Assembly (NCBI GenBank): GCA_943356485.1
Contig: CALRFD010000001.1
Coordinates: 137,716 to 201,715 of the forward strand
Length of the DNA: 64,000 nucleotides
Reading direction: 5' to 3'
Source of the DNA: Patescibacteria group bacterium
GTDB taxonomy: Bacteria > Patescibacteriota > Microgenomatia > Daviesbacterales > UBA10151
The notes beneath the pieces are model-generated. The model was not told where the DNA came from. It did not search any database and saw nothing but the letters and a program-made list of their open reading frames with translations. Each line of letters begins with the position of its first letter. Positions within the stretch are counted from its first letter, which is position 1. Both the position numbers and the translations under genes were made by a program. This document shows, piece after piece, positions 2,851 through 59,395 of the stretch.

Positions 2851-4152
2851 ATGAAACTTGAACAATTAAAGCATTTAATGGAAAGATTTAATCAAGAACC
2901 AGATTTTAGGGAGGCGGTTCGATCTCATAATCCTCATCCCGGGCTTTGGCAAAGGCTTTTGAATCCACCATTAATAGTACCCAGCTATAAAGCAAATTTT
3001 ACTTTAGATCCTATCCAAGCACAAATGCATGGTTTAGAAAAGGATTTTCAGATTGAAGCAGGATCCATAACGGAATTTCCTTTGAGTTCTGCATTGGCTT
3101 TATCAAAATTACCATTCTCTGATGTTAATCGATTAAGGGAAAACGATTTTGGAGTTTGGCCTTCCCTCAGTGAGCCTGACAGAGACCTTTTACGTATAAT
3201 GAATCCGGACTTGGATGGACACTCAATAGATTTTATAATGGGGGGCGTTCATCCTAAGTCTGTGCCTCATATTGAAGATATTGAGTCAAGACAATGGGGC
3301 GCTTTATGGTTTGATCCCCGGCATTTAGCATCTTCTGATACTGCTACTCCTGAGACTAACTTAATTCCAAATATATTTGAAGTGTTATCGGCAGTAGATT
3401 CCTTCCGCGCTCAACAAGGCAAGGATGGGAATCTGTCTCTAAGCTCAAGTAATGAGTGGGTGTTAACTAGCTCTAGGGTACAAGTAGATCTTAAAAAGGA
3501 ATATCGTCAATGGTTAAAAGATAGAGGGTGGTTGGCAGAGTTTTTTCATTCTGCTATTTTAGAAAGATATGTGCCTAATGGGAGTGAAATAAATAATATT
3601 ATTGCTAAAGAAGAAGCCGGAGGTTTCGAGCATAAGAAATCCAGACCTTTGAGGACAAGACTGAATGATGGAAGTAATGTAACGATATTTGAAGATCATG
3701 TTCTGGTTCAAAGAAGAGGAGAAACATTTTATGAGCGTATTTCTGATGATTACATGAGCATTAATACTAAGAAAAATTCTTGGAGTTTGAGAATGGGCAC
3801 ATTGGAGATACAGGATTATACTGACCATACGAGACACTCTTTTAATTTTGATGAGGAGATACTAGATCCGTTAAGGCGATTATTAGGTAGCCATGTAGCA
3901 AAAAGCCTATTTACTACTACACAAGGCATAAATTTATGGGTATGCTTTAGATTAGGTATTAGAGAAGGACTATCAGTTGGAATGTTTGTTCCTAGTACGG
4001 ATGCTATTCCACTTAATGAACATATTTCTATTTCTTTGTTGGATGGAGCTTTTAATGATTTGAAACTTATGGCACCAGCACTTAATCATGTTAGGAAGTA
4101 TGTGCCTCCAGCAATATATCGAGATCAGGATGCACGCAGATTATTGGATTAA
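2851..4152 (+). CDS. Hypothetical protein (433 aa), no recognisable domain.
   Basis: Long ORF with its own AT-rich upstream region containing a GTGTAT box. No motif recognised. Confidence 0.5.
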   Translation: MKLEQLKHLMERFNQEPDFREAVRSHNPHPGLWQRLLNPPLIVPSYKANFTLDPIQAQMHGLEKDFQIEAGSITEFPLSSALALSKLPFSDVNRLRENDFGVWPSLSEPDRDLLRIMNPDLDGHSIDFIMGGVHPKSVPHIEDIESRQWGALWFDPRHLASSDTATPETNLIPNIFEVLSAVDSFRAQQGKDGNLSLSSSNEWVLTSSRVQVDLKKEYRQWLKDRGWLAEFFHSAILERYVPNGSEINNIIAKEEAGGFEHKKSRPLRTRLNDGSNVTIFEDHVLVQRRGETFYERISDDYMSINTKKNSWSLRMGTLEIQDYTDHTRHSFNFDEEILDPLRRLLGSHVAKSLFTTTQGINLWVCFRLGIREGLSVGMFVPSTDAIPLNEHISISLLDGAFNDLKLMAPALNHVRKYVPPAIYRDQDARRLLD

Positions 4153-18840: not shown

Positions 18841-19782
18841 TTATTTCTTAAGAGATTCAATAAATTTTTCTAAGTCAATTTTATCAATCCTAATAAATTT
18901 TCCTCCAAGTTTAACTGCTTTTAAATCTCCACGCCTTACATACCTTCTCACACTCTCTGGATCAACCTGCAAAAGCTTTGCTACCTCATCTGTTGTGTAA
19001 AAACGTTGATCCAAAGCTGGCTCTTCTGCACTTACTCTTCCTGGCTCAACTGTCTCAAGATAAATATCCAAAGATCTATCTACTGCTTCAAGCATTAAAT
19101 CATAATAATCAACTAGATCATTTTTTGTCTGGCCTTTTTCTAGGGAGTTAATATATTCACTGCGATCTTCTTTGCGAATGATAGCTGAAGGGAAACCAGC
19201 TTGCATCAGAAGTAAATTTAGTAATAATCGTGCAGTTCTCCCATTGCCATCAACAAAAGGATGAATACTAACTAATTTATAATGAGCATCGATAGCAATT
19301 TTAACAGGATGATCAGAATTATCACTTTGTAACCAGGCAATAAATTCATCCATTAATTCCGGTACTTTTAGAGGATTAGGTAAAATTGTTTCTGAACCTC
19401 GTAGACGCACGGCCACGGTTCGGTATCTGCCTTTGTTTATATCATCAATTTTATTTAAGATAATGCTATGGATATCCAAGATATCTTTTGCAGTTAATTC
19501 TTGTCTTTTTTTGTTAACGAGGGTTTGAATATAGTCAAAAGCTTTTGCATGATTAATTGCTTCTTGATGCTCTGTTAAGCTTTTACCTTTAACAGTAATA
19601 CCTTCTTCCACCACCATGGCTGTTTCTTGGCGTGTTAAAGTATTGCCTTCTATAGCATTTGAGGTATAGGTTAGTTCTATCCGGAACCATTCTTCGAGGT
19701 TTTTAATAAGCTCATTTTGGAGTGGTTTGTAGCTATCTAGGTGTTGTTTTTTAGCTTGTAACTTAAGTAATTTATTATCCAT
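18841..19782 (-). CDS. Fic-family protein (AMPylase/phosphocholine-transferase fold) with a C-terminal excisionase/MerR-type HTH.
   Basis: Fic motif HPFVDGNGRTARLL. The C-terminus YTTDEVAKLLQVDPESVRRYVRRGDLKAVKLGGKFIRIDKIDLEKF resembles excisionase-family DNA-binding HTH. Confidence 0.85.
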   Translation of the reverse strand: MDNKLLKLQAKKQHLDSYKPLQNELIKNLEEWFRIELTYTSNAIEGNTLTRQETAMVVEEGITVKGKSLTEHQEAINHAKAFDYIQTLVNKKRQELTAKDILDIHSIILNKIDDINKGRYRTVAVRLRGSETILPNPLKVPELMDEFIAWLQSDNSDHPVKIAIDAHYKLVSIHPFVDGNGRTARLLLNLLLMQAGFPSAIIRKEDRSEYINSLEKGQTKNDLVDYYDLMLEAVDRSLDIYLETVEPGRVSAEEPALDQRFYTTDEVAKLLQVDPESVRRYVRRGDLKAVKLGGKFIRIDKIDLEKFIESLKK

Positions 19783-26358: not shown

Positions 26359-27918
26359 ATGTTAACTCCAGAATTGTTAAACATTCCTGCTGCAATTTGT
26401 CCTGATCGCAGCGCGGTCATTTTTGAAGGTTCCCACCAATCTTTTGCCCAGTTAGATCAACGTTCTTCAAAATTAGCAGAATCACTCTTGCGCCAGGGTA
26501 TAAAATACGGAGATAGAGTGGCGATGCTGGAAGTAAATACTCCAAAAGTAGTTGAAGCTTATTTTGCCTGCGCCAAAATTGGGGCTGCTTTTGTTCCGCT
26601 GGATTTCCGGGCCAGGCAGGATGAGCTTAAATATAGATTAGAAGATTCAGGTGCGCAAGCTATTTTTTTGGGTGAGAGATATCTTCCTATGGCTGCTGCC
26701 TTAGGATCGAATAGAAAAATTATCTCCCTGGTCGCAGCTGCTAATCCTGAGATGTTAGGGATAGATAGCCTAATTGAAAATGGCAGAGAAGATAATCTTC
26801 CGGATACACCGGGTGATGAATCAGACATGAGCGTTTTAATGTATACCTCGGGCACAACAGGTGTTGCTAAAGGGGTGATGCTTTCCCATCAAAGTTTTAC
26901 GGAGTATTCGTTAAATAATGTTGATCCGGCAGATCCGGAAAAGCAAGAAAGTAATATTTTAACAGTGCCGCTTTTCCATATTGCCGGGATGCAGGCTATG
27001 ATGGCAGCGGTTTGGGGTGGTAGAACTTCAGTGCTGCAAAGACAATTTGAGCCGGTGGAGTGGATGAGGTTGGTGCAAGAGCACCGGGTTGACCGGGCGA
27101 TGATGGTGCCAACCATGCTTAAGATGTTAATGGATCATGCTGATTTTTCAAAGTATGACTTAGACAGTTTAAAAGTTATCACCTACGGTGCTGCTCCAAT
27201 GCCTTTTGAGGTGATAAAAAAAGCAATTGAACTATTTCCAAGCGCAGGTTTTATCAATGCTTTTGGCCAGACAGAATCCGGGGCTACTATCACCATGCTT
27301 GGGGTGGAGGATCATAAATTAGTGGGTTCCCCCGAAGAAGTTGCCAAAAAGTTGAAAAGATTAAGCTCAGCCGGCAAGGCTTTGCCTGGTGTAGAAATCA
27401 GGATTAAGGATCCGGATGGAAAAGATCAACCTGTATTTGAAAACGGTGAGATAGTGGTCAGGACGAAAAGAGCTATGAAAGGATATCTGGGAAAGCAGGA
27501 GGCAACTGCGGAGACAATTGATCCGGAAGGTTTTTTGCATACAGGAGATGCAGGTTATCTGGATGAAGAAGGTTATCTGTTTATCTCCGGTCGGATGAGG
27601 GATACGATCAAAAGAGGGGGAGAGTTTGTTCCACCGGCAGAGGTAGAGGATACTTTGATGTCTCATCCCTCTATTGCCGATGCAGCGATTATCGGTGTGC
27701 CTGATGATACCTGGGGTGAGACGATCAGGGCAGTAGTAGTGCTAAATCCCGGACAAAGCGTGACTTTAGAGGAGTTACGCAGCTTTGGCAGACAAAGAAT
27801 GGCAACGTATAAACTGCCGGACTCTTTGGTTATAGTTGATGAATTGCCAAGAAATCCAATGGGAAAAGTGCTAAAAGCTGAGCTTAAAAAAGTATACGGT
27901 CAAGCAGGAGGCAAATGA
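26359..27918 (+). CDS. AMP-dependent synthetase/ligase (acyl-CoA synthetase family).
   Basis: AMP-binding motif YTSGTTGVAKGVMLSH, plus TGDAGYLDEEGYLFISGR and the C-terminal K in PRNPMGKVLK. Confidence 0.85.
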   Translation: MLTPELLNIPAAICPDRSAVIFEGSHQSFAQLDQRSSKLAESLLRQGIKYGDRVAMLEVNTPKVVEAYFACAKIGAAFVPLDFRARQDELKYRLEDSGAQAIFLGERYLPMAAALGSNRKIISLVAAANPEMLGIDSLIENGREDNLPDTPGDESDMSVLMYTSGTTGVAKGVMLSHQSFTEYSLNNVDPADPEKQESNILTVPLFHIAGMQAMMAAVWGGRTSVLQRQFEPVEWMRLVQEHRVDRAMMVPTMLKMLMDHADFSKYDLDSLKVITYGAAPMPFEVIKKAIELFPSAGFINAFGQTESGATITMLGVEDHKLVGSPEEVAKKLKRLSSAGKALPGVEIRIKDPDGKDQPVFENGEIVVRTKRAMKGYLGKQEATAETIDPEGFLHTGDAGYLDEEGYLFISGRMRDTIKRGGEFVPPAEVEDTLMSHPSIADAAIIGVPDDTWGETIRAVVVLNPGQSVTLEELRSFGRQRMATYKLPDSLVIVDELPRNPMGKVLKAELKKVYGQAGGK

Positions 27919-41622: not shown

Positions 41623-41913
41623 ATGCAAAGGATTATTGTTCAGGTTCCTATGACGAGAGAGTTAAAAGATAAAGCAGAGATTATTTCCGCTGACTTAGGA
41701 TTTTCTTCTTTACAAGAAACTATTAGAGTGCTTTTAACCAAGCTTTCCAAAAAAGAGTTTAGTCTAAGAGTAGAAGAAGAGCAGGAACAGCCAAGTCAAT
41801 ATTTACTTTCTGCAATGAAAAAGGCAAGAGCAAACAGAAAGACGGGCAAAGCATCTCCTGTTTTTGATAATGCCAAAGACGCACTTAAATTTTTAGATGA
41901 ACAAGGTATATGA
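41623..41913 (+). CDS. Putative RHH/RelB-like antitoxin.
   Basis: IIVQVPMTRELKDKAEIISADLGFSSLQETIRVLL. Stop overlaps the start of the downstream RelE/ParE gene (ATGA). Confidence 0.5.
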   Translation: MQRIIVQVPMTRELKDKAEIISADLGFSSLQETIRVLLTKLSKKEFSLRVEEEQEQPSQYLLSAMKKARANRKTGKASPVFDNAKDALKFLDEQGI

Positions 41914-42197
41914 AAATTCAGTATGATCCTGATTTTCTCAAAATTCTTAAAAAAGCAGATGTAAGAATCCGTAAGAGTTTAAGAATAAGAATAGAAATAT
42001 TTTTAAAAAATCCCTCTGATCCAAAACTTAATAATCATAGGCTTAAAGATGAATATGCAGGATATCGGAGCATAGATATTACTGCAGATTATCGTGTAAT
42101 TTATGAGGAGATAAATGAAGGCAATGAATCAATTGCCTATTTTTTATTCATTGGTAGGCATGAATTACTTTACGGTCATCTAAAGAAGATTAGTTAG
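41910..42197 (+). CDS. Type II toxin, RelE/ParE superfamily (second copy).
   Basis: FLKNPSDPKLNNHRLKDEYAGYRSIDITADYRVIYEE, paralogous to the 7007..7255 toxin. Confidence 0.7.
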   Translation: MKIQYDPDFLKILKKADVRIRKSLRIRIEIFLKNPSDPKLNNHRLKDEYAGYRSIDITADYRVIYEEINEGNESIAYFLFIGRHELLYGHLKKIS

Positions 42198-43901: not shown

Positions 43902-45221
43902 ATGGTTGAAGCAAGTAGGGATTATAAACCAATAGATTTACTCGCTACGTTAGGAGAACCCTTTAAAGGAGAACTTAATGACTCCCCTGATGCATTTCAA
44001 ATGGTTGAGGCTGCGAAATGGACGATGAGGAATGTAGCAAGAAGGGTTGTTGGAAGGGAAAGATTAGCCTCGCAAACTTTACTTGCTCTTTTAACCAGAG
44101 AGCACCAGCTAATTTTTTCAAGAACAGGGACAGCTAAGTCTTTATATGCAGAGACTGTTTTCAGTCAATTTACCGCAGAAACTTTTTCAATACAATTCAC
44201 GACTGGAACTACTGAAGAGGCGGTTGTAGGAGCTTATGATTTAAATAAATTTAGGGAGGGCACTATTTGGCACAATACTGAAAAATCTTTAGTTACTGCT
44301 GATTTTGCATTTTTGGATGAATTCATGGATGCAAATGATATGGTACTGCGGTCAATCTTAGGGATTTTAAATGAAAGAAAATTTTCCAAAGGAAAACAAT
44401 TTGAGCAAGCCAGGCTTCATAGCGCTATAGCTACCACCAATTATGTCAGAAGGTCAGAGATGTCAGAGGCAGTACTTGACAGGTTTCTTTTCCAAGCCAG
44501 GATTAACCCTGAAACAAGTCCGTTGGATCAGCTTTTGATTGATAGGGTTTATTCTCTGCAAAACGGGAGAGTTAGTAAACCTGAAAATCCGGTACCGCTA
44601 GACGTTTTAAAGGAGCTGTCAAAGATGGTTAAGGGTGAGGGGGATACTAATATTAGTGCTTCACACTCTCTACTTTTTTTAAAAAATCAACTAATTAAAA
44701 ATTATATCGATATGTTGTTTGACCAAAGACGTGAGCAAAATCAAAATGCGGAAAAACTTTATATTAGCCCGAGGAAATTGGCAAAAGCCAGGGATGTTTT
44801 AAATGCCTCAGCCATACTGCAAGGCAGGTTTGATGCATCCGTGGAAGATCTACCTGCATTAAGGTTTATTTTAACAACTATTTCAGGGAGCGAAGAGGAT
44901 GGTGATTCGGAGGAGGAAATTTTTTATCAGGCTTTAGATTATACGCTGACTTCTTTTAGCCGGGAAGATCTTAATGATGTTGAAAAAATTATGTTTACCT
45001 ATGAATATTATGAGGCTTATAAAGACGGTAAGTTAGTTGAAGCAGTCAAAGCCAATCTTCCTGGTATATTTAGAATAGTGATGAGCCTTTTCGGTATTGT
45101 ATCCTGGCAGGATGTTAATAAGGAAGTATTTTTGCAAACCCTTCAGGCTATGAAAATTAAGAGTCCTGCAGTAGTGCAACTTAGGGATAACCTGAAAGAT
45201 AAGATTATCAAATATGGCTAA
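43902..45221 (+). CDS. MoxR-family AAA+ ATPase, RavA-like, with a degenerate Walker A.
   Basis: [18 protein letters not shown] aligns to RavA [45 protein letters not shown] aligns to [36 protein letters not shown] aligns to EALYDRMLI. Confidence 0.7.
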   Translation: [439 protein letters not shown]

Positions 45222-46578
45222 AGAGAGAGAAAGTTCAGTCAGAGGAGTAAATGAAAATTTGTCGGATTTTTATAAATCCTGGGGAGCATTTGATATCTTT
45301 GAGAAAACGCTGGATCAGCTACCTCCGGACTGGTTAAAAATCTTAAACATTGCCAGAAATCTACTAGACGGGAAAAGAATTCCTGGAGTCAACCTTCCTT
45401 CAACTGTCATGGCTCTGGTAGAGAAGGATCAGGAAATAGTTTTTGAAAAAAGATATATGACCAGAAAATGGCAGCAAAAATCCATCCTACCAGCCACCAG
45501 CATTGATGTTAAAAATCTGGAAGATTTATCTCAATTGCCTAAAGTATTGCCAGCCCACCTCCTGCTGCAGGGCGAAGCGCCGGAAATCTTTGCTTATCGG
45601 GCTCTGACTCATTCTCTACCAATAGCCGAGATGCAAAAACCAAGAGCAATAACAGAAGAAAAATCAGAAACCTTGATGGAACTTGTACCAAAGGCAAGAG
45701 AAAGAACTTCTATGCGGCAAAGAGTCTATGCTTTAATGGATGTTTCTCTCTCAATGAAATCTAATTACAAATTAATCTTTTCCAAAGCTGTCATGTTGGC
45801 TTATTTGGCAAAAGCCCACGAGGAAGGATCAGAGGTTTATTTCCGAGCTTTTGCCGGCAGTGTCGGGGATCTGGTAGCCTGCATCTCTCCTGAGGATTTT
45901 CCTGCTTTGGCAAAGAGGATCTTAGGATACAGGGTCTATCATGGTACTGATATTAGGTATGCTCTCACAACTGCAGTTGAAGATATTTCTAGGATGGAGA
46001 GATTAACTGACAGTAGAAGAGCTAAAACTGAGGTTTTGCTAATATCAGATGGTGAAAGCTATACCCCTATACCCCTGATGCCTAAAAATATAGCTTTGCA
46101 TACCCTGCATTTAGTCGGAGGAGGCGAGGAGTTTATATTAGATAAAGAGTTAAGGCAAATGAGTAACACTTACACCAGGATAGATACAGGAAATTTAATG
46201 CTGCCAAGTATTTCAGAGGAGGCTTGGTTTATGTTTGAGGAGATTGAGAGGCTGGAAGATCAAACAAAAGGTCTGACAGATTCAGAGATGAAATACGATA
46301 GAAGACTGCAGCAAAGAGTTGAAGCTATAAGAAAGCATACAGAAGCATATAGAAAAATCGATTCCAGCGAGAAAGTTAGGGAAAATGCCGGCAGAGCGCA
46401 AAAACTGCATGATAAAGTTTCCTTAGAAAAAGCAGAGGAAAGATTAAAGAAAAAATTAGAATTAATAAGGTATTTTATAAAAAAACTTATGCAAAAAATT
46501 AAGTCTTTCCGATTGCCTAAATTTGACAGAAAGAAAGTATTAGCCGGGAGTTTATTTGATTTTAGAATAAAGGACTAG
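45214..46578 (+). CDS. von Willebrand factor A (vWA) domain protein, ViaA-like partner of the MoxR ATPase.
   Basis: MIDAS motif in RVYALMDVSLSM (DxSxS), then a Thr and LLISDGES. Overlaps the MoxR gene by 8 nt (coupled). Confidence 0.65.
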   Translation: MAKERESSVRGVNENLSDFYKSWGAFDIFEKTLDQLPPDWLKILNIARNLLDGKRIPGVNLPSTVMALVEKDQEIVFEKRYMTRKWQQKSILPATSIDVKNLEDLSQLPKVLPAHLLLQGEAPEIFAYRALTHSLPIAEMQKPRAITEEKSETLMELVPKARERTSMRQRVYALMDVSLSMKSNYKLIFSKAVMLAYLAKAHEEGSEVYFRAFAGSVGDLVACISPEDFPALAKRILGYRVYHGTDIRYALTTAVEDISRMERLTDSRRAKTEVLLISDGESYTPIPLMPKNIALHTLHLVGGGEEFILDKELRQMSNTYTRIDTGNLMLPSISEEAWFMFEEIERLEDQTKGLTDSEMKYDRRLQQRVEAIRKHTEAYRKIDSSEKVRENAGRAQKLHDKVSLEKAEERLKKKLELIRYFIKKLMQKIKSFRLPKFDRKKVLAGSLFDFRIKD

Positions 46579-47521
46579 GATTACCTATTACCTTAACATT
46601 ATTTGTAGTTTGATTTGCTACTTCTTCCAAAGTTATTCCTTTTAACTCTGCAATCAGCCTTGCAATTTCTAAAACTGCAGATGGTTCGTTTCTCTGCCCC
46701 CGTTTGGATTGGAGAGGTAGGAAGGGGCAATCAGTCTCCAGGCAAATTTTATCCAAAGGCAGAATTTTAACAGCCTCTCTTAAGTATTCATTTTTAGGAT
46801 AGGTTAGAGTTCCTCCAAATGACACTAAAACATTAGACATTTTGAGTATTTGGTGAGTGGTTCTGGTCAAACCACTGTAGCAGTGGAAAATAGCCGGGTA
46901 ATCACCTATTAAATTTAACGTTTCATCCCAGGCTTCGCAGTTTTCTGGATTTTTAGAGCGGTCATCCCGGCAGTGAACTATTAAAGGTAAGTCTAGCTTT
47001 TTAGCCAGATCAATCTGGGCTTGAAAAAGTCTTCTTTGTAGCTCTTTTTCGTGATTGTGAGAAAGTTTACCGGTTCGACTGAGCTCACCGTCGAAGTCCT
47101 GAACTTGTTTCAGGGTGGCAATCTCTGTTTCTCTAAAGTAATAATCCAGCCCGCATTCCCCAACAGCGATAACCTTTTTCGGATTTTCTCTATAAATTTT
47201 TTCCAGTTGAGTAATGTCTTCGTTGACATTTTTGCAACGATCGTCGTATTTTTGTCCAGGTAAGGAATAATTTATAGCCTCATGCGGGTGAATACCGATT
47301 GTTGAATAAACCTTCAATCCTGGAATGTCTGACAGTTTACCGGTTCGACTGAGCTCACCGCCGAAGTCCTGAGCTTGTCGAAGGGCTTTTTTCGATGATT
47401 CAATATCTACCCCAACATTTATAATGGTAGTTACACTGGCATCAAGAGATCGTTTTATAACTTCATCAAAATCCGGTTTAAAACTGTCCCAATATAAATG
47501 GGCATGGGTGTCTATCAGCAT
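46562..47521 (-). CDS. tatD: TatD-family metal-dependent deoxyribonuclease. Carries two in-frame ~48-bp repeat insertions.
   Basis: MLIDTHAHLYW, GIHPHEA, AVGECGLDYY, LIVHCRDD and the C-terminal DCPFLPL. Duplicated inserts encode QDFGGELSRTGKLS and QDFDGELSRTGKLS. Confidence 0.85.
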   Translation of the reverse strand: MLIDTHAHLYWDSFKPDFDEVIKRSLDASVTTIINVGVDIESSKKALRQAQDFGGELSRTGKLSDIPGLKVYSTIGIHPHEAINYSLPGQKYDDRCKNVNEDITQLEKIYRENPKKVIAVGECGLDYYFRETEIATLKQVQDFDGELSRTGKLSHNHEKELQRRLFQAQIDLAKKLDLPLIVHCRDDRSKNPENCEAWDETLNLIGDYPAIFHCYSGLTRTTHQILKMSNVLVSFGGTLTYPKNEYLREAVKILPLDKICLETDCPFLPLQSKRGQRNEPSAVLEIARLIAELKGITLEEVANQTTNNVKVIGNPSPLF

Positions 47522-47612
47522 GCATTAATTATACACTTGTAAGAATAAATACAATTTTCTTGTAATTATCAATACTATATGTTATATACCATGATGCAAT
47601 TTAATTGAGTTA

Positions 47613-48302
47613 ATGACTAATATGAAACTAGCAGAAAGATTGTTAAAAATTTGGCAGCCAGGCGACTTTAAGCAGATTTTTGAAAAATTTTCCAATAAAA
47701 AGGAATTTATGGTCAAAAAGGGCACGGTTTTATTTAATGAAGGGCAGCCACTGGATAGGATCTTTTTCATAAAATCTGGTTTTGTTAAGTTATACCGTCT
47801 TTCAGAAGAAGGTCGGGAATCGATAATTTATCTATATGGTGCAGGACAGATTCTGGGGATAAGGGCGCTTACTTCTGAGGATGAATGTGCCAGGCATTTT
47901 GCAGAAGCAATAACTGATCTTGAAGTAGTAAGCATCACCCGCGGCGAATACCTTGAAGCTGTAGCAGAAAATCCTGAATATTTATTGGATCTTTTGCATG
48001 TTTTTATAGACAGATTAAATTATACAGAGAAAAAATTGACCGGATTTATTTTGACTGATACTGTGGCCAGAGTTGCCTTTTTCCTGTCAGATTGCGCCAC
48101 CCGTTTTGGGATCAGTAAAAAAGACACGGTGGAGTTGCCGATAGAATTAACCCATCAAAGAATAGCGGAGTTTGTGGGTTCTTTTAGGGAAACTGTCACT
48201 TTAGCAGTTCAAAAATTAGAACAGATGGGCATTATTAACATCAAAAAAAGTAAAGTAGCTATCCTGGATTTAAAAAAACTGCACAAGCTCGCCGGATTGT
48301 AA
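47613..48302 (+). CDS. Crp/Fnr-family transcriptional regulator (cNMP-binding + HTH).
   Basis: TVLFNEGQPLDRIFFIKSGFVKLYRLSEEGRE (cNMP fold) and the C-terminal HTH QRIAEFVGSFRETVTLAVQKLEQMGII. Confidence 0.8.
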   Translation: MTNMKLAERLLKIWQPGDFKQIFEKFSNKKEFMVKKGTVLFNEGQPLDRIFFIKSGFVKLYRLSEEGRESIIYLYGAGQILGIRALTSEDECARHFAEAITDLEVVSITRGEYLEAVAENPEYLLDLLHVFIDRLNYTEKKLTGFILTDTVARVAFFLSDCATRFGISKKDTVELPIELTHQRIAEFVGSFRETVTLAVQKLEQMGIINIKKSKVAILDLKKLHKLAGL

Positions 48303-48527
48303 GAAAGACTACTATTAAAAAGTAGTTACTACTACTGAACTAACCCCTTCTTTAAGGTTTAATGGTTTCATGATTACATTTATTTTTGCCAATATTTATC
48401 AAGCGATATCCTTACTTTTACGCCTGTATCCAGGTGAAGATTCCAAGACTTCTTCGACAGAGGAGATTAATCAGTTAAGACAGTACAGGTCTTTTCTAAA
48501 AAAATACGAACAGGAGAATAAAGAATA

Positions 48528-49892
48528 ATGTCAGTAACTGTTGAAACAATCGGATCAGAAGATTTATACAGAATGAGAAAAAGCCATCGGGTAGTAGTAA
48601 CCGGCATGGGTGCTGTTACTCCTTTAGGGCTTAATGTAGAGGATACCTGGCAAAACCTTATTGCCGGAAAATCAGGTATTCAAAGAATCAGTACCAGTGA
48701 TTGGGAAGGCAAAGTGGATGCAAAAAACAGCGAGGTTGATATTGCCGGTTTGGTTATGGGTTTTGATGCTTCAAAGTATATCCCAAGAAAAGAATTAAAC
48801 AGGATGCACAGATCAGCACAATTTTCTATTGTAGCTGGTCGAGAAGCTCTAATACAGGCTGGTTTATTTGATGCTTCAACAAAAATGGAAAAAGGTGCGA
48901 CTCCTCTTACAGGGGTAAGTCCTGAAGCATTTGGCGCGATTTTAGGAACTGGTATTGGAGGAGGTTCTGAAATAGCGGATATAGAAGATGTTATCCGGGA
49001 TAGAGGTGACTCGCGTGTTAGTCCTTTTGCCATGTTACTGCTTTTACCAGAAAGGGTAAGTACTGTTCCGAGTATGTGGCTTAGCTGTCAAGCTGAAGTA
49101 GGAGAGAAGACTGCTGCTTGTGCTTCCGGTGCGCAAGCAATTGCAGATGCATATAGAGTTTTAGAACGGGGAGAAGCAGATGTGATGTTAGCAGGTGGCA
49201 GTGAGGCAGCGGTTCATCGGGTAGCTCTATCCTCTTTTAATAATATGCATGCTTTAAATAATATAAGTAATGATAACCCAAAAGGAGCCAGTAGCCCTTT
49301 TGATCAAAAAGCCGCTGGCTTTGTGATGGGAGAGGGAGCAGGAGTACTTTGCTTAGAAACCTTAGAGCATGCATTAGGTAGAGGGGCAAATATTTTGGCA
49401 GAATTAGTAGGTTATAGTAATACAGCTGATGCTCATCATGACACAGCTCCCTTGCAGGCAGGGGCAGAGAGAGCTATCAGGAATGCCTTAGCTATGGCAG
49501 AGATTGATCCAAGTCAGGTTGACTATATTAATGCTCATGGTACTTCTACTCCTACTAATGATCCAAACGAACTGAAAGCTTTTAGAGCTGTTTTTGAAGA
49601 TAGCCTAGATGATATTTCAATCAGCTCTACTAAATCAGCCACAGGTCATTTACTGGGAGCAGGCGGAGGGATAGAAGCAGTTTTTTCTATCCAGGCTATC
49701 CTGGAAGGGATAGTGCCGCCAACGCTTAATTTACAAAATCCAATTAAAGAAGGTGAGGGATTAAATCTGGTACCTTTAGCCGCACAAAAAAGAGAAGTTA
49801 ATATAGCTATGTCTGATTCGCTTGGATTTGGCGGACTAAATTCAGTCTTAATTTTCAGAAGATTTCAGAAAAGTTATCAAGAGGTAGTCTAA
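48528..49892 (+). CDS. fabF: 3-oxoacyl-ACP synthase II (KAS II).
   Basis: VVVTGMGAVTPLG, active Cys in ACASGAQAIADA, and His residues in INAHGTSTPTND and KSATGHLLGAGG. Confidence 0.9.
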   Translation: MSVTVETIGSEDLYRMRKSHRVVVTGMGAVTPLGLNVEDTWQNLIAGKSGIQRISTSDWEGKVDAKNSEVDIAGLVMGFDASKYIPRKELNRMHRSAQFSIVAGREALIQAGLFDASTKMEKGATPLTGVSPEAFGAILGTGIGGGSEIADIEDVIRDRGDSRVSPFAMLLLLPERVSTVPSMWLSCQAEVGEKTAACASGAQAIADAYRVLERGEADVMLAGGSEAAVHRVALSSFNNMHALNNISNDNPKGASSPFDQKAAGFVMGEGAGVLCLETLEHALGRGANILAELVGYSNTADAHHDTAPLQAGAERAIRNALAMAEIDPSQVDYINAHGTSTPTNDPNELKAFRAVFEDSLDDISISSTKSATGHLLGAGGGIEAVFSIQAILEGIVPPTLNLQNPIKEGEGLNLVPLAAQKREVNIAMSDSLGFGGLNSVLIFRRFQKSYQEVV

Positions 49893-49898
49893 AAAATT

Positions 49899-50648
49899 AT
49901 GCCAACATTGGAATTAGAAGGAAAAGTAGCAATAGTAACAGGTGGAACAAGGAGTATTGGCAGGGCTATAACAGACAAGCTTTTAGAACATGGGGTCAAA
50001 GTTGCCTTTAATTCCCTTAATCCGGATGGTGAAGAGGGGAAACAGTTAGTAGAAGAGCATGGGGAGAATGTGTTGTGGGTTCCGGGAGATATTTCCAGTC
50101 CTGAAACAGGTTCAGATTTGGTTAAGAAAACAATTGATAAGTTTGGCAGGGTTGATATCTTAGTTAATAATGCTGGAATTAACAGGGATACGTTATTAAT
50201 GAGGATGAGTGATGAAAAGTGGGATGAGGTTTTACAAGCTAATCTTTATGGCTCAATGAGGGTGACCAGGGCAGCTCTCCGGCCAATGCTAAGACAAGTT
50301 GAGGGCGGTTCTATTATTTTTATATCATCAGTAGCCGCGCGCGGTAATCCGGGACAAGCAAATTATGCCGCTTCAAAAGGAGGGGTGGAAGCATTTATGA
50401 GGGTTGTGGCTTTGGAGGGAGCAAGCCGTAATGTCAGGGCAAACGCGATAGCTCCTGGTCCGGTAGAAGAAACAGATATGCTGAATAATCTTAAACCGGA
50501 GCAAAGAGAAGCCCTTATAAATATGGTTCCTATGAGAAGAGCCATAAGAAGGGTGGAAGTTGCAAATACTGTTTTGTTTTTAGCCTCTAATCTGTCTTCC
50601 GGGATTACCGGACAGGTTATAAATGTAGATGGGGGGATGATTAGATAA
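49899..50648 (+). CDS. fabG: 3-oxoacyl-ACP reductase (SDR).
   Basis: VAIVTGGTRSIGRAI, NNAGI, YAASKGG (YxxxK) and IAPGPVET. Confidence 0.85.
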   Translation: MPTLELEGKVAIVTGGTRSIGRAITDKLLEHGVKVAFNSLNPDGEEGKQLVEEHGENVLWVPGDISSPETGSDLVKKTIDKFGRVDILVNNAGINRDTLLMRMSDEKWDEVLQANLYGSMRVTRAALRPMLRQVEGGSIIFISSVAARGNPGQANYAASKGGVEAFMRVVALEGASRNVRANAIAPGPVEETDMLNNLKPEQREALINMVPMRRAIRRVEVANTVLFLASNLSSGITGQVINVDGGMIR

Positions 50649-50650
50649 AT

Positions 50651-51916
50651 ATGGCTGAGCGGCCGATAGCTGTTATAACAGGAACTTCCAGGGATGTGGG
50701 GAGATATGTCTCTATTGGGTTAGCCCAGGCAGGTTATGATATTTTAGGCGTTTATAGAAATCCCCAACATGACCAGGATCAAGCAGACGTTATAAAGGAA
50801 GTTAAAGGTCATAAAGCCAGGATGGTTGCAGTCAGGGCAGACCTTTTAGATGAGGCTACGCCAGATTTAGTATTAGCAAAATTAGAGGATTTTGGGGGTA
50901 AAGTTAGCGCTTTTATTGATAATGCTGCCGGAGGGTATGGCTTAACTAAAGAGGAGGCAAGAGAGATAAATGTTGCTGCTCCGCAGAGATTAATGGATAA
51001 GCTAAGGAATAACTTAACGCCTGATGCGGCGGTAGTTTTTAACACCAGCATTCCTGCCCATTTATTTCACACCCTGCAAGCAGACGATATGGCATTAATG
51101 GGAGATTATGATTTCGTTGCCCGGAGTAAAAACGAAAGAGAAAGGATGCTAAGGTCAGAATTTGTTGGAGATGGACAAAGACTGGCGGTAGTAGTAGGTA
51201 ATGGGTTGGATGGCAGTTTTGTAACCAGGCTTTTGAAGGGGAAAAATAAGTCTTTTGTTAGCCGGATGTTGAGCCTTTCAGATACAGATTATTTCCCGAC
51301 AGTGATGGATATGGCAACTGCTGTGGTTAAGGTAGTAAGAGGCAACTATCCAACAGGACACACAGAATATGTAGGGATTGCGCCCCAACATCAGCTTTAT
51401 CCTTCCAGACCTTTGGGATCTAGTCTAATTGACGCTCCGCAAATGAGGGAAGGGTCGATTTTATCCAGAGAGGAAATTTATAATATTATCCCCCACCGCT
51501 GGCCGTTTATGTTTATTGGAGGAGTTTCGGAGGTTGAATATGGTAAAAGAGCTGTTGGTTCATTGGTAGACTTAACTAATCCTGATATTAATTGGACTGG
51601 CGGACATTTTCCAGACTATCCTTTGGTTCCAGGGGTAATTACTCAAGAAGCTTTGCAGCAGTTGGGGGCTTTGGTTGTTTTAGGTATGACTGAGCATAGA
51701 GGTATGACTGCTGTTTTAACAGGAGTTGATCAGATGCGTTTTTTAAGGCAGATTCTTCCAGGGGATAATATAAGATTGGAGGTTGAAGGCATGGACATTA
51801 CTGAAGAGAAAAGAAGGATTACAGGTATGGGTCATGTGCGGGCTTTAAATCACTTAGGTAAAGTAGCAGTAGAGGGTAGGGTGTCATTTGCGCTTATTAA
51901 TCCGGCTAAAAAATAA
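50651..51916 (+). CDS. Fusion protein: N-terminal SDR domain with a FabI-type Y-x6-K motif (putative enoyl-ACP reductase), plus a C-terminal FabZ-type hotdog 3-hydroxyacyl-ACP dehydratase.
   Basis: N-terminus IAVITGTSRDVGRYVSIGLAQAGY and YDFVARSK (cf. FabI YNVMGLAK). C-terminus IIPHRWPFMFIGGV...NWTGGHFPDYPLVPGVITQEALQQ (cf. FabZ LPHRYPFLLVD...FFQGHFP..PIMPGVL). Confidence 0.65.
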   Translation: MAERPIAVITGTSRDVGRYVSIGLAQAGYDILGVYRNPQHDQDQADVIKEVKGHKARMVAVRADLLDEATPDLVLAKLEDFGGKVSAFIDNAAGGYGLTKEEAREINVAAPQRLMDKLRNNLTPDAAVVFNTSIPAHLFHTLQADDMALMGDYDFVARSKNERERMLRSEFVGDGQRLAVVVGNGLDGSFVTRLLKGKNKSFVSRMLSLSDTDYFPTVMDMATAVVKVVRGNYPTGHTEYVGIAPQHQLYPSRPLGSSLIDAPQMREGSILSREEIYNIIPHRWPFMFIGGVSEVEYGKRAVGSLVDLTNPDINWTGGHFPDYPLVPGVITQEALQQLGALVVLGMTEHRGMTAVLTGVDQMRFLRQILPGDNIRLEVEGMDITEEKRRITGMGHVRALNHLGKVAVEGRVSFALINPAKK

Positions 51917-51976: not shown

Positions 51977-53332
51977 ATGCCATCTACACCAGAAACATCA
52001 AAAGAAAAACGTTCATCCCTTTCCAGAGGTTTAGAAAAAGCAGCTAATCTAATAGACGCAGCTTCGGATAGATATGGGAAACCTACTGATAGAGAGATTG
52101 TAGAGAGGCTTTTGCAAAGAGGTATTAATACTGTTGTCAGCGTTCCCTGTTCTATAACTCAAACTATCGCCGCAGAGTGGCATGATCTGTCAAAAAAAGG
52201 ACAGATGCGTTTAATCAATACAGTAAATGAACATAGTGTAGTTGGGATAGCTGCCGGGGTTTGGTTTGGAACAGGCGAAGTGCCTCTTATACATATGCAG
52301 AATTCCGGAGTAACTAATTCTGCAGATGGTTTGATTTCTTTCGCTAAGGTTTATAAAATCCCGATACTGGAGATGGTTACCTGGCGGGGTAATGATTTAA
52401 CAGATGACAGTGAACCACACCAAGAGATAGGTAATATGACTGATGATTTAACGAAGTTACTGGCAGGTAAAGAGAATAACTTTGGGATGAAAGATGGCAG
52501 GGGGTTTATGCGAAGAATGGATGAGGCAATCAGGATGGCTCAGATGGGCGGAAGAAGCGTCATTAGACTTTCCCCTGCTGCTTTTAGAAAGAGCTACCCT
52601 ATGTCGCTCCCGGTTGATTTAGAGGAAGAAACTGAAGATAAAATTTTGGCTAGAAGAGAGAGAATTAAAGAAAGTAAAGGTAGTAATATTGGCGAGGTTC
52701 TTCGAAGATATAGGGTTTCCAGGGGAGAAGCCATGGCTGAGATTGTTCATCAACACCCTGATGCGGCGATTTTATTTGCTAATGGTTTTAACGCCAGGGA
52801 AGCTCAAGGAAGAAATACAATAGACCGGGAAGGTAATTTTTACAACGCCGGCTATATGGGTGGCACACTGGCTATTGGTTGGGGAATTGCCAAAGCAAAT
52901 CCTGATATAAAGGTGGTGGTTGTGGATGGTGATCAAAATGCCATGATGGGTAAGATGCATGAACATTTTGGAGATGGGGATTATCCGGATAACTTGAGTT
53001 GGTATATTTTAGATAACAGAATAGGCGCATCCGTTGGAACTTCAAAAAGCCTTAAGCTACCCTGGTGGTATTATGACGTAGCTCGTGTTATAAGGACTGT
53101 TCCTGATGAACCAGGCTCATTTAAGCTGCCTCGGGTAAAAGAGCAGGGAAAGTATTTTGATAAAGAGGCAGCTAAACAGCTGGCAAGAGCAAAAGAGATG
53201 GGTCCTTTACCTGTGCTAACATTGATGTTCCGCGACTGGATTGCAAAACAAACACAGGTTAATATAAGAGCCAATGTATCCAATAATGTTGCTGAGGTGT
53301 TAAGAGTTAATTCAGCTATGTTAGAAGCTTAA
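51977..53332 (+). CDS. Thiamine-diphosphate-dependent decarboxylase (sulfopyruvate/phosphonopyruvate-decarboxylase-like, fused alpha/beta halves).
   Basis: N-terminal half VVSVPCSITQTIAAEW...NEHSVVGIAAGVWFGTGEVPLIHMQNSGVTNSADGL (cf. ComD/Ppd). C-terminal half GGTLAIGWGIAKANPDIKVVVVDGDQNAMM (TPP-binding GDG-type motif). Confidence 0.6.
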   Translation: MPSTPETSKEKRSSLSRGLEKAANLIDAASDRYGKPTDREIVERLLQRGINTVVSVPCSITQTIAAEWHDLSKKGQMRLINTVNEHSVVGIAAGVWFGTGEVPLIHMQNSGVTNSADGLISFAKVYKIPILEMVTWRGNDLTDDSEPHQEIGNMTDDLTKLLAGKENNFGMKDGRGFMRRMDEAIRMAQMGGRSVIRLSPAAFRKSYPMSLPVDLEEETEDKILARRERIKESKGSNIGEVLRRYRVSRGEAMAEIVHQHPDAAILFANGFNAREAQGRNTIDREGNFYNAGYMGGTLAIGWGIAKANPDIKVVVVDGDQNAMMGKMHEHFGDGDYPDNLSWYILDNRIGASVGTSKSLKLPWWYYDVARVIRTVPDEPGSFKLPRVKEQGKYFDKEAAKQLARAKEMGPLPVLTLMFRDWIAKQTQVNIRANVSNNVAEVLRVNSAMLEA

Positions 53333-58231: not shown

Positions 58232-59395
58232 CTATTTCCTAAATAATGCGACATAATCCTTCATCTCAAATAGCCTATTCCTAGAATAGCCTGTTTTTTC
58301 CTGTAGAATATCTAAGCCCGTAAGATCTGATACAAGATCACTTGCGGCTTTAAAACTTACACCCAGAACTTTACTCACATTATTTACACTTACGATAGGT
58401 TGAGAGAATAGATATATCAGCAACTGTCTTGCTTTTGGAACTTTTCTTCCTAAGGTAGTAATTTTATTATCATATTGCTCACGAAGAGTAATAATATTCT
58501 CGAATTTTTGTTTCCCCTTATTACTAGTCACTACAACTCCTTCAAGAAAGAAACGAACCCACCCTTCGAGATTATTCTTCTGTCTGACTTCATCAAGGGT
58601 CTCGTAATATGATTGACGATATTCCTCAAAATAGTCAGAAATATACAAAACTGGTTTAGTAAGGAAGCCACGCTCTATTAGTTGTAAAGTGATAAGTAGC
58701 CGACCGATGCGGCCATTTCCATCGAGAAATGGATGAATAGTTTCAAATTGATAATGCATAATAGCTATTTTTATCAGTATTGGTATATTTAACGAAGAAT
58801 TATGCCAAAATTTTTCCCAATCAGAAAGCAATCCTGCAACTTCTGTGTGTTGAGGGGGGACGTAATGAGCTGTACGAATAGAAGAACCTCCAATCCAGTT
58901 TTGGCTTGTGCGAATTTCACCAGGTAATTTATGCTTACCTCGAACGCTAGTTAGAAGACGAGAGTGAGTGTCTTTTATGAGCCTTACCGAGACTGGTAAT
59001 CTTTTAAGTTCTTCAACAGACCAGTTCATGGCATTGATATAATTTCTAACCTCTCGCCAATCGTCACGACGCTCAGGATCTATTTCGTCTTCTGGGAGCA
59101 ATACCTCATCTATTTCTGTACGGGTGCCCTCAATTCTGGAGGAGCTTACAGCTTCTGATTTAACATGCATCTGAATGAAATAATCAATATCAGGTACGAG
59201 CCTTGAATACGCATTCAATTCACCAAGTAGGCGTGTCGCCTCTTCTAAAAGTGTAATAGTGGATTGGTCATTAGCTATAAATGGCCTATTGATACCAGAC
59301 GGCAGAAAACTGGTATACTCAGCATCCATGCCGACAAGTATTTTTTGATTTGTTCCTGCAGTAAAGTCTTTCATACTGTAAATATAACACATCAT
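58232..59395 (-). CDS. Fic-family protein (second copy).
   Basis: Fic motif HPFLDGNGRIGRLLITLQL in a 387-aa protein. Confidence 0.8.
   Translation of the reverse strand: MMCYIYSMKDFTAGTNQKILVGMDAEYTSFLPSGINRPFIANDQSTITLLEEATRLLGELNAYSRLVPDIDYFIQMHVKSEAVSSSRIEGTRTEIDEVLLPEDEIDPERRDDWREVRNYINAMNWSVEELKRLPVSVRLIKDTHSRLLTSVRGKHKLPGEIRTSQNWIGGSSIRTAHYVPPQHTEVAGLLSDWEKFWHNSSLNIPILIKIAIMHYQFETIHPFLDGNGRIGRLLITLQLIERGFLTKPVLYISDYFEEYRQSYYETLDEVRQKNNLEGWVRFFLEGVVVTSNKGKQKFENIITLREQYDNKITTLGRKVPKARQLLIYLFSQPIVSVNNVSKVLGVSFKAASDLVSDLTGLDILQEKTGYSRNRLFEMKDYVALFRK

Follow-up and report, generated by a model that had tools for sequence, protein, structure and literature searches.

A candidate regulator-linked type II fatty-acid elongation module with a putative enoyl reductase–dehydratase fusion in Daviesbacteria

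Whether three adjacent genes could encode all four activities of fatty-acid elongation is the question raised by a plus-strand locus in the window, the whole stretch of 64,000 nucleotides analyzed here. The original prediction described a Crp/Fnr regulator followed by a ketosynthase, a ketoreductase and a single protein joining a reductase to a dehydratase, and the coordinates and strand of all four open reading frames were reproduced. Pfam and NCBIfam searches identify a Crp/Fnr-family transcription regulator (229 aa, 47613-48302, plus strand), a FabF-type beta-ketoacyl-ACP synthase II (454 aa, 48528-49892, plus), a FabG-type 3-oxoacyl-ACP reductase (249 aa, 49899-50648, plus) and an SDR-hotdog fusion protein (421 aa, 50651-51916, plus). 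The predicted spacing of 3-7 nt proved roughly right, with 6 nt separating the ketosynthase and ketoreductase genes and 2 nt separating the latter from the fusion gene; the regulator and ketosynthase genes lie 225 nt apart. The methionyl-tRNA synthetase (MetRS) encoded in the window shares 73-83% identity with proteins of Candidatus Daviesbacteria, which agrees with the CPR-type host proposed earlier and, at the level of sequence, places it in the Daviesbacteria. Within this lineage the cluster is rare and sporadic, as 19 fusion homologues (E <= 1e-5) were found versus at least 120 MetRS homologues (at least 64% identity).

The first two enzymes carry intact active sites. The ketosynthase contains both the N- and C-terminal ketoacyl-synt domains of Pfam, scores 462 bits against NF005589 (cutoff 387) and 474 bits against the fabF model TIGR03150 (cutoff 494), and aligns with a catalytic triad formed by Cys198, His337 and His374. 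The ketoreductase matches adh_short_C2 of Pfam at 1.2e-62 and the FabG model TIGR01830 at 251.5 bits (cutoff 298), with a YX3K active site residing within the sequence GQANYAASK.

The domain searches proposed for 50651-51916 returned adh_short at the N terminus of the third protein (residues 6-115) and a FabA/FabZ hotdog at its C terminus (residues 281-399). We delimit an SDR domain (aa 1-245, 50651-51385, plus), an interdomain linker (aa 246-272, 51386-51466, plus) and a FabZ-type hotdog domain (aa 273-421, 51467-51916, plus). An AlphaFold model contains two confident domains (pLDDT 86 overall, about 90 for the N-domain) joined by a linker that is conserved in sequence and modeled with low confidence, pLDDT dropping to 47 at residues 251-260. 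Stand-alone SDR homologues (P0020-P0031) and short proteins whose match to the fusion profile is confined to the hotdog region exist, as would be expected if an assembly error or frameshift had linked two separate genes. However, 19 full-length homologues, 40-78% identical and drawn from independent NCBI, JGI, ENA and Logan assemblies, share the same uninterrupted architecture, and the linker is unbroken and alignable in every one of them. The fusion is therefore genuine, and the probability of an artefact is negligible.

The C-terminal domain is FabZ-like, as predicted. Its catalytic dyad, His319 (51605-51607) and Glu333 (51647-51649), is invariant across the 19 homologues, and the 14-residue spacing of this pair, the single hotdog fold and the PHRWPF and GHFP motifs are all features shared with FabZ. 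The domain matches FabA of Pfam at 3.9e-13, the top PDB sequence matches are all FabZ (4e-16 to 3e-10), and Foldseek aligns it with Bacillus subtilis FabZ at 41% identity. Scores nonetheless remain under the curated FabZ cutoffs (86 versus 113 bits for NF000582, and 79 versus 155 bits for a second model). The FabZ fusion known in NCBIfam joins the dehydratase to LpxC (NF009667), not to a reductase. Weak ApeI-like hotdog matches were also observed.

In the N-terminal domain, the predicted YDFVARSK motif is present, and the domain combines a glycine motif (TGTSRDVG) with Asn107, Ser133, Tyr153 (51107-51109) and Lys160 (51128-51130). In alignments with reference sequences checked against the PDB, Tyr153 and Lys160 fall column-for-column on Y151/K158 of FabL and Y156/K163 of FabI, the two enzymes for which YX6K is the catalytic signature (PMC6817880), whereas all ketoreductases of the cluster carry YX3K. 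The original prediction was thus correct about the Y-x6-K signature, but its designation of the domain as FabI-like does not stand. E. coli-type FabI, a "divergent" SDR, shares the spacing and the proposed reaction (PMC6817880), but it is only 13% identical and lacks the classical TGxxxGxG motif, and no FabI chain occurs among the 60 best PDB matches of the N-domain profile. The classical TGxxxDxG motif of the window protein and the absence of a FabI HMM match rule out a FabI identity.

The nearest characterized relative is instead FabL (YgaA), the NADPH-dependent enoyl-ACP reductase III of B. subtilis (PDB 3oic/3oid), with which the domain shares the classical SDR fold, a TGxSRxVG-type cofactor motif, an NAA(S/G)G motif and the exactly aligned tyrosine-lysine pair. 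A profile of the N-domain matches FabL (3oic) over its full length at 3e-20, and the next PDB matches, none better than 2e-12, are for the most part confined to the Rossmann half. The resemblance is distant: identity is about 21%, the loop before the catalytic tyrosine is longer by about 9 residues, an aspartate interrupts the glycine motif, and the match to the FabL equivalog HMM reaches 47 bits (cutoff 328) over residues 3-96 only. In addition, FabL stands alone, whereas the window protein adds the FabZ domain.

The N-domain scores below every curated NCBIfam cutoff. Across 11 family members the PRK07806 model (NF005868, "SDR family oxidoreductase") ranks first, with a best value of 1.5e-45, and FabL second; for the window protein, PRK07806 covers the whole domain at 97-99 bits, under its 162-bit cutoff. 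This family carries no assigned function, and no mention of it was found in the literature searched. A wider clade of YX6K SDRs shares the motifs Y-x2-[VI]-A-x-[ST]-K and LNAAGG, and some of its members are fused to a hotdog domain or are encoded beside ketosynthase, ketoreductase and hotdog genes. In a neighbor-joining tree, the fusion family groups with this clade (200/200) and apart from the ketoreductases, which form a clade of their own (188/200), with FabL and FabI as sister to the fusion family. By sequence, then, the domain belongs to a large, uncharacterized PRK07806-like SDR clade and is a probable enoyl reductase.

In relatives of the locus, the trio lies beside genes for FabD and acetyl-CoA carboxylase (ACC). 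Three of them (L004, L005 and L006) share the order Crp, ketosynthase, ketoreductase, fusion, AMP ligase, FabD, biotin ligase, a protein of unknown type and a 1090-aa fused ACC. Biotin ligase and ACC also occur in L007, FabD in L010, and FabD with two ketosynthases in the Daviesbacteria locus L001; none of these six loci contains a second reductase candidate. This association with FabD and ACC supports the earlier view of the trio as a fatty-acid elongation set. Type-B loci each contain two active ketosynthases, and L018 encodes a distant, unfused version in the order ketoreductase, ketosynthase, SDR, hotdog. Some loci are reduced. The separate ketoreductase of L007 has lost its active site to an in-frame deletion of about 140 aa while the fusion is intact; L008 and L012 retain a ketosynthase and an SDR without a ketoreductase, the SDR of L012 being an internally deleted remnant; and a lone SDR occurs in L008 and L009. 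L007, L008 and L012 look like products of decay.

From the FabL-aligned YX6K pair, the FabZ domain, the FabD/ACC context and the lack of another reductase candidate, we therefore regard enoyl reduction plus dehydration as the best reading of the fusion, and assign a probability of about 0.6 to the locus being a compact, regulator-linked type II elongation module in which this protein combines a FabL-like enoyl reductase with a FabZ dehydratase. Of the four elongation activities predicted for three genes, the ketosynthase, ketoreductase and FabZ-like dehydratase domains are borne out, and the enoyl reductase remains putative. It is quite unlikely that the SDR is instead a 3-ketoacyl/3-hydroxyacyl oxidoreductase, with the fusion performing ketoreduction and dehydration, or the reverse, and enoyl reduction being absent or located elsewhere. 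Peroxisomal multifunctional enzyme type 2 (MFE-2) provides a precedent, as it joins an SDR dehydrogenase to a hotdog-fold hydratase 2 in one polypeptide catalyzing consecutive acyl-thioester steps; fold searches with the N-domain, which do not separate one type of SDR from another, return mainly ketoreductase-type SDRs, and the loci without a functional ketoreductase would fit. But MFE-2 is a degradative enzyme acting on CoA substrates, with a YX3K dehydrogenase and a MaoC-type double hotdog, whereas the fusion pairs a strict YX6K SDR with a single FabZ-type hotdog. Within this fold, ketoreductases and hydroxyacyl dehydrogenases use YX3K; the best characterized match is an enoyl reductase, an intact FabG lies directly upstream in the window and in most relatives, and the ketoreductase-less loci appear decayed.

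Two further alternatives accept the enzymes and question their use. It seems unlikely that the module yields a specialized product (a type II polyketide-like compound, a dedicated lipid, or elongated or remodeled scavenged chains) in place of bulk membrane fatty acids. FabH is absent from every cluster locus examined, an acyl-AMP ligase lies within the cluster in L004-L006 (in the window one occurs far from it, at 26359-27918), and the paired type-B ketosynthases, the ApeI-like matches, the sporadic distribution and the dedicated regulator point the same way; yet the ketosynthase, ketoreductase and dehydratase have the housekeeping models for FabF, FabG and FabZ as their nearest matches, relatives co-locate ACC, biotin ligase and FabD as primary synthesis would predict, and tailoring enzymes, cyclases, thioesterases and cluster-specific ACPs are lacking. 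That the trio is a non-functional remnant, its ACP and malonyl-ACP supply (ACC and FabD) lost from the genome, is very unlikely. As originally observed, acpP, fabD and fabH are not visible in the window: Pfam scans of about 50 ORFs and a small-ORF scan found no ACP, FabD, FabH or ACC, and tblastn with FabD, ACC and biotin ligase from relatives and AcpP from E. coli found no match. Nor does the 252-kb contig contain a homologue of the lineage's FabD, in a search that reaches close relatives only. The decayed loci, and a gene for a thiamine-diphosphate enzyme where relatives have FabD and ACC, would also suit a remnant. Against this stand three full-length ORFs with every catalytic residue intact and a conserved regulator with its boxes; moreover, direct inspection covers 64 kb of the genome, and small ACPs are easily missed. 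In this genome, the module may be supplied with substrate.

The thiamine-diphosphate enzyme gene (451 aa, 51977-53332, plus; TPP_enzyme_N and TPP_enzyme_C) resembles a fused sulfopyruvate/phosphonopyruvate decarboxylase, scoring 142 bits against TIGR03297 (cutoff 312). It shares the strand of the fusion gene, starts 60 nt downstream of it and may belong to the same transcript, but it is missing at the corresponding position in L004, L007 and L010 and is outside the conserved cluster.

The regulator contains cNMP_binding (4.7e-19) and HTH_Crp_2 (2.9e-13) domains, and its closest curated model is NtcA (TIGR03697, 82 bits, under cutoff). It is 72-79% identical to the cluster-adjacent regulators of L004 and L010, and regulators of the same kind occur in L007, L008 and L014. 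Box 1 (47538-47553, plus), which precedes the regulator gene by 60-75 nt, is an exact TGTA-N8-TACA palindrome of the NtcA type (GTA-N8-TAC) and the only exact match in 64 kb; exact boxes occupy the homologous position in L004, L005, L006, L007 and L010. Box 2 (TGTAATTATCAATACT, 47561-47576, plus, one mismatch) follows box 1 by 23 nt, a spacing repeated in L004, L006 and L010. Box 3 (TGTAAGAAAGACTACT, 48298-48313, plus, one mismatch) overlaps the regulator stop codon upstream of the ketosynthase gene, and exact boxes occur at this junction in L004 (4979-4994), L007 (2234-2249) and L010 (7800-7815).

Under the elongation reading, FabF would condense malonyl-ACP with acyl-ACP, ACP being the presumed carrier, FabG would reduce the 3-keto group, the FabZ domain would dehydrate 3-hydroxyacyl-ACP, and the FabL-like domain would reduce trans-2-enoyl-ACP, probably with NADPH. 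Expression would probably be controlled by the adjacent NtcA-like regulator through the TGTA-N8-TACA boxes. Covalent coupling of consecutive steps would allow irreversible reduction to pull the unfavorable dehydration. In maize plastids, the type II enoyl-ACP reductase ZmENR1 and the 3-hydroxyacyl-ACP dehydratase ZmHAD1 are physically paired with a gain in efficiency (PMC11686123), although the two maize proteins associate non-covalently and their reductase is FabI-type, whereas the pairing proposed here would be covalent. Such a fusion is unusual for a lineage normally unable to make fatty acids.

Four open reading frames in tandem on the plus strand make up the gene cluster, and the ORF table and the Pfam and NCBIfam searches all agree with the original prediction, which had read this arrangement from the sequence alone. 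The first (47613-48302; 229 aa) encodes a Crp/Fnr-family regulator with Pfam cNMP_binding and HTH_Crp_2 domains. It is followed after 225 nt by a FabF-type ketosynthase (48528-49892; 454 aa), after a further 6 nt by a FabG-type ketoreductase (49899-50648; 249 aa), and after 2 nt by the SDR-hotdog fusion (50651-51916; 421 aa), whose N- and C-terminal domains match NF005868 (PRK07806) and NF000582, respectively. The ketosynthase scores 462 bits with NF005589 (over the cutoff of 387) and 474 bits with TIGR03150 (just below the cutoff of 494), and with its C198/H337/H374 triad it belongs to the FabF family. The ketoreductase, which carries YX3K and NNAG motifs, scores 251.5 bits with TIGR01830 (cutoff 298) and 212 bits with NF009466 (cutoff 222).

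Sixty nucleotides past the fusion gene begins a plus-strand gene for a thiamine-diphosphate enzyme (51977-53332; 451 aa) that resembles a fused sulfopyruvate/phosphonopyruvate decarboxylase (TIGR03297 gives 142 bits, short of its cutoff); no PEP mutase was noticed among the window genes. In relatives, this slot is occupied by FabD, acetyl-CoA carboxylase (ACC) or a ligase. The spacer between the regulator and ketosynthase genes contains a 52-codon ORF (48370-48528, plus strand), the TAATG end of which overlaps the ketosynthase start. Its initial residues, MITFIFA, resemble those (MIRFFAC) of a 26-codon ORF in the equivalent position of the related locus L004, and it was rejected as a gene on finding no conservation in two other related loci, L007 and L010. 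Elsewhere in the window, a TatD-family hydrolase (46562-47521, minus strand) exceeds the Pfam model by about 60 aa and contains two near-identical peptides, QDFGGELSRTGKLS and QDFDGELSRTGKLS, roughly 100 residues apart. Just upstream of it lies an overlapping pair encoding a MoxR-type AAA+ ATPase (bpMoxR) and a VWA-domain protein (43902-46578, plus strand). Two Fic-domain proteins with HTH domains (18841-19782 and 58232-59395, both minus strand) and a ParE/YafQ-type toxin with a 96-aa ORF, its likely antitoxin, in front of it (41623-42197, plus strand) are also present. Positions 1-1575, where GC content is slightly higher (0.43), show neither an ORF longer than roughly 115 aa nor any Rfam or tRNA match, and may be non-coding or belong to a gene cut off by the window edge.

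Joining of two genes by an assembly frameshift had been named as an outcome that would undo the proposed fusion. A search of 5.8 billion proteins (E <= 1e-5) recovered 19 full-length homologues of the fusion, 416-444 aa long and 40-78% identical, from NCBI, JGI, ENA and many independent Logan assemblies, together with ten to twelve homologous proteins in which the SDR domain stands alone. The linker region is continuous in the alignment of the fusion proteins, and an AlphaFold model built from that alignment (mean pLDDT 86) places a Rossmann domain in the region up to about residue 245 and a hotdog domain from about residue 273 onward, joined by a linker of low confidence. The full-length homologues and the uninterrupted linker alignment exclude an assembly or frameshift artefact, the probability of which we consider negligible.

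The dehydratase identity that had been proposed for the C-terminal domain was upheld by several lines of evidence. NF000582 matches residues 274-396 at 86.4 bits (cutoff 113) and TIGR01750 gives 78.6 bits (cutoff 155), both below cutoff. His319, within a GHFP motif, and Glu333 are invariant in 19 sequences and have the 14-residue separation found in FabZ. The best 21 sequence matches of this domain in the PDB are all FabZ-type dehydratases (4e-16 to 3e-10), and Foldseek pairs the hotdog fold of the model with B. subtilis FabZ at 41% identity. FabA reached 5.5e-6 at best in the same PDB search, far weaker than FabZ, and a FabA-type isomerase identity was rejected. These data indicate that the C-terminal domain behaves like FabZ despite its sub-cutoff equivalog scores.

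For the N-terminal domain, the top NCBIfam model is NF005868 (PRK07806), which scores 97-99 bits over residues 6-244, below its cutoff of 162. When the window domain and ten stand-alone relatives were scanned together, PRK07806 ranked first in every case (best 1.5e-45) and FabL second (1.2e-16), with both models matched by all 11 sequences. No function is attached to PRK07806, an unnamed SDR subfamily in NCBIfam. The FabL equivalog NF005975 gives 46-47.5 bits against a cutoff of 328 and aligns with residues 3-96 only. The domain HMM searches recovered both the SDR and the FabZ-type hotdog, as had been expected, and the curated cutoffs of the FabL, FabZ and PRK07806 models were not reached. A profile constructed from the same 11 sequences and searched against all PDB sequences found B. 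subtilis FabL as its best match (3e-20, full-length alignment); later matches were 2e-12 or worse, mostly covering the N-terminal Rossmann half alone, and no FabI chain occurred among the best 60.

The YDFVARSK motif, from which a Y-x6-K SDR had been proposed, corresponds to Tyr153-x6-Lys160 of the fusion. In an alignment with E. coli FabI, E. coli FabG and B. subtilis FabL, whose sequences were checked against the PDB, these two residues share columns with Y151/K158 of FabL and Y156/K163 of FabI. In FabI and FabL, the YX6K spacing serves as catalytic signature (PMC6817880). It holds in the fusions, in all stand-alone relatives and in 40 members of a wider clade of YX6K SDRs, with the tyrosine invariant and the lysine present in 16 of the 19 fusions (histidine in the other three); YX3K is found instead in the window FabG and in four further ketoreductases from the clusters. 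The family also carries an NAA(S/G)G motif as in FabL, in contrast to the NNAG of FabG, and an arginine after strand 2 like that of NADPH-dependent FabL. Its cofactor motif, TGTSRDVG, in which the second glycine is replaced by aspartate, is of the classical type, unlike that of the "divergent" SDR enoyl reductase FabI, to which identity is 13% for the E. coli protein. By its cofactor motif, its identity to FabI and its PDB matches, the domain is not FabI-like, as it had originally been read. In a bootstrapped neighbour-joining tree, the family and wider clade group together in 200 of 200 replicates, apart from a separate ketoreductase clade (188/200) and with a FabL-FabI pair (137/200) as sister to the family; given thin reference sampling, this lends moderate support to a placement outside the ketoreductases, the question for which a phylogeny had been suggested. 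As judged from these comparisons, the N-terminal domain belongs to an uncharacterised YX6K SDR clade with FabL as its nearest characterised relative.

One distant stand-alone member of this clade, the protein P0058, resides in another lipid-like cluster (locus L015, 22-8816) with a PP-binding/NAD_binding_4 reductase, an AMP-binding ligase, two acyl-CoA dehydrogenases and a luciferase-like monooxygenase. Because its cluster differs, the clade is not confined to FAS-like contexts.

Homologous clusters in relatives take two principal forms. In loci L004, L005 and L006, whose fusions are 68% identical to that of the window, genes for the regulator, ketosynthase, ketoreductase and fusion are followed, in this order, by genes for an acyl-AMP ligase, FabD, a biotin-protein ligase, a 193-aa protein of no assigned identity and a fused 1090-aa biotin carboxylase-carboxyltransferase. 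L007 encodes the regulator, ketosynthase, a ketoreductase remnant, the fusion, biotin ligase, a 187-aa counterpart of the unassigned protein and the same carboxylase. In L010 (fusion 75% identical), FabD immediately follows the fusion, and FabD homologues also occur on short contigs with the homologous proteins P0008 and P0012. A second arrangement, found in L001 (Daviesbacteria), L008 and L014, combines the regulator with two divergently transcribed, active ketosynthases, to which L001 and L014 add a ketoreductase and the fusion and L008 a lone SDR; L001 also includes FabD. A distant, unfused version (L018) has the order ketoreductase, ketosynthase, SDR, hotdog. These relative loci contain no FabI, FabK, FabV or other reductase candidate, so that, if the clusters run full elongation cycles, the YX6K SDR would be the enoyl reductase by elimination. 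No locus contains FabH, and no ACP gene was recognisable there, ACP detection being weak.

Several features of these relatives were recorded separately. The 1090-aa protein is a single-chain ACC, with biotin carboxylase and carboxyltransferase beta/alpha portions, preceded by the biotin-protein ligase (L004, 11128-15848; L007, 5314-10133). The 187-193-aa protein between ligase and ACC, which has no Pfam match and lacks any clear biotinyl-lysine motif, may supply the biotin carrier that is otherwise missing. L010 (CAZYPW010000011.1) comes from a metagenome-assembled genome titled "uncultured Gammaproteobacteria"; identity between its cluster proteins and those of the window is 75-79%, it shares a 566-aa secreted neighbour with Daviesbacteria L012, and the label is probably wrong. 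Identity along the cluster is uneven: the ketosynthase and fusion of the window are 79.5% and 75% identical to those of L010, the window ketoreductase (49899-50648) is 48% identical to that of L004 (6513-7274), and the ketoreductases of L010 (9237-9998) and L004 are 91% identical. This mosaic similarity suggests gene replacement or recombination within the cluster.

The Pfam domains of the regulator score above their cutoffs, and its top curated model is NtcA (TIGR03697; 82 bits, cutoff 245), a factor whose consensus site is GTA-N8-TAC. The sole exact TGTA-N8-TACA match in the window (47538-47553) lies 60-75 nt upstream of the regulator gene, with one-mismatch boxes 23 nt beyond it (47561-47576) and at the regulator stop codon, upstream of the ketosynthase gene (48298-48313). 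In L004-L006 and L010, exact boxes are present at all three corresponding positions, the upstream pair again 23 nt apart (L004, 4223-4238, 4246-4261 and 4979-4994; L010, 7053-7068, 7076-7091 and 7800-7815). L007 has two, and the divergent promoter regions of L001, L008 and L014 also carry GTA-N8-TAC boxes. The number of boxes in the window is by itself not above chance, and the case rests on positional conservation across loci. From this we infer autoregulation by the Crp/Fnr protein, together with control of the fab genes, via the predicted sites. Scanning the window for sigma-70 promoters and terminators gave matches at chance level, and Rfam gave none.

The cluster is a sporadic trait in its lineage, as at least 120 homologues of the window MetRS (>=64% identity) were found compared with 19 of the fusion (E <= 1e-5), and a pattern scan of 185,579 species genomes returned three loci. 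The MetRS itself shares 83, 77 and 73% identity with proteins annotated as Candidatus Daviesbacteria, which assigns the host to the Microgenomates group of CPR bacteria. Consistent with the initial observation that acpP, fabD and fabH are not visible, Pfam scans, a homology search and a small-ORF scan of the 64 kb detected no FabD, FabH, ACC, biotin ligase, ACP or Pls. For ACP, this result rests mainly on the Pfam scans and a lack of plausible small ORFs, as a two-sequence ACP HMM was insensitive and missed the PP-binding domain present in L015. With the FabD of the lineage as query, five proteins were retrieved from the whole database, none of them on the 252,454-bp source contig of the window. 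A distant AMP-binding enzyme (26359-27918) is the single such gene in the window. The window thus lacks the ACP, FabD, ACC and initiation enzyme of a complete type II FAS; FabD and/or ACC adjoin the cluster in relatives.

We favor, with a probability of about 0.6, a type II elongation module in which a FabZ dehydratase is fused to a FabL-like enoyl reductase of predicted activity. FabF would extend acyl-ACP using malonyl-ACP, FabG would reduce the keto group, the FabZ domain would carry out dehydration, and the FabL-like domain would reduce the enoyl thioester, NADPH being the probable reductant. FabZ forms hexamers and FabL tetramers. Joining the last two steps covalently would allow the irreversible reduction to pull the unfavourable dehydration; a non-covalent ENR-dehydratase complex in maize plastids raises efficiency (PMC11686123). 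Initiation without FabH could proceed through an acyl-AMP ligase loading exogenous acids, or through decarboxylation of malonyl-ACP by FabF.

Other interpretations of the module were weighed against this proposal. The module might produce a specialised or remodelled lipid instead of supplying bulk fatty acids, which we regard as rather unlikely. Alternatively, the SDR could be a ketoreductase and the fusion an MFE-2-like dehydrogenase/hydratase. Proteins of that type likewise join two such domains, namely a YX3K hydroxyacyl dehydrogenase and a MaoC-type hydratase-2 hotdog. The SDR of the fusion is YX6K, and the window protein has a FabA/FabZ Pfam match and no MaoC match, making this identity unlikely. 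Signs of pathway decay do exist among relatives: an in-frame deletion of about 140 aa takes out the active site of the L007 ketoreductase (3696-4031); L012 has a ketosynthase followed by an internally deleted SDR remnant (9097-9822) from which the NAAGG strand is gone, and no ketoreductase; and in L008 (8001-8834) and L009 (874-1662) the SDR stands alone, without ketoreductase or dehydratase. The three window enzymes are intact and keep all catalytic residues. It is unlikely that the module survives here only as a non-functional relic.

Enoyl-ACP reduction is the most variable step of type II FAS and the target of the antibiotic triclosan. The known classes of this enzyme are FabI, FabL, FabL2, FabV, FabK and FabI2 (PMC6817880), a list that would be lengthened by a further YX6K clade fused to its pathway partner FabZ. 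Our literature search turned up no publication dealing with PRK07806, a FabL-FabZ fusion or the making of fatty acids by Daviesbacteria. The fused dehydratase-reductase would be new to type II FAS, as the enoyl-reductase clade probably is, although the chemistry is conventional and the activity is a prediction from sequence. A natural single-chain dehydratase-reductase would offer a way to study how substrates are passed on in a dissociated synthase; until activity is demonstrated, the fusion is of modest practical value.

CPR/Patescibacteria are generally held to be unable to make fatty acids and to depend on hosts for lipids (PMC7304191, PMC9938205, PMC11608272). A broader proposal, which we advance tentatively and at somewhat less than even odds, is that the YX6K PRK07806-like clade constitutes an unrecognised class of enoyl-ACP reductase, fused to FabZ in some Daviesbacteria, and that together with FabF, FabG, FabD, the 1090-aa ACC and the acyl-AMP ligase it forms an autonomous, FabH-less type II FAS under an NtcA-like regulator. 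If true, these bacteria would depart from the rule that CPR cells have to acquire lipids from hosts. A regulated, conserved FAS II module in a subset of Daviesbacteria would mark these lineages for a direct test of lipid dependence.
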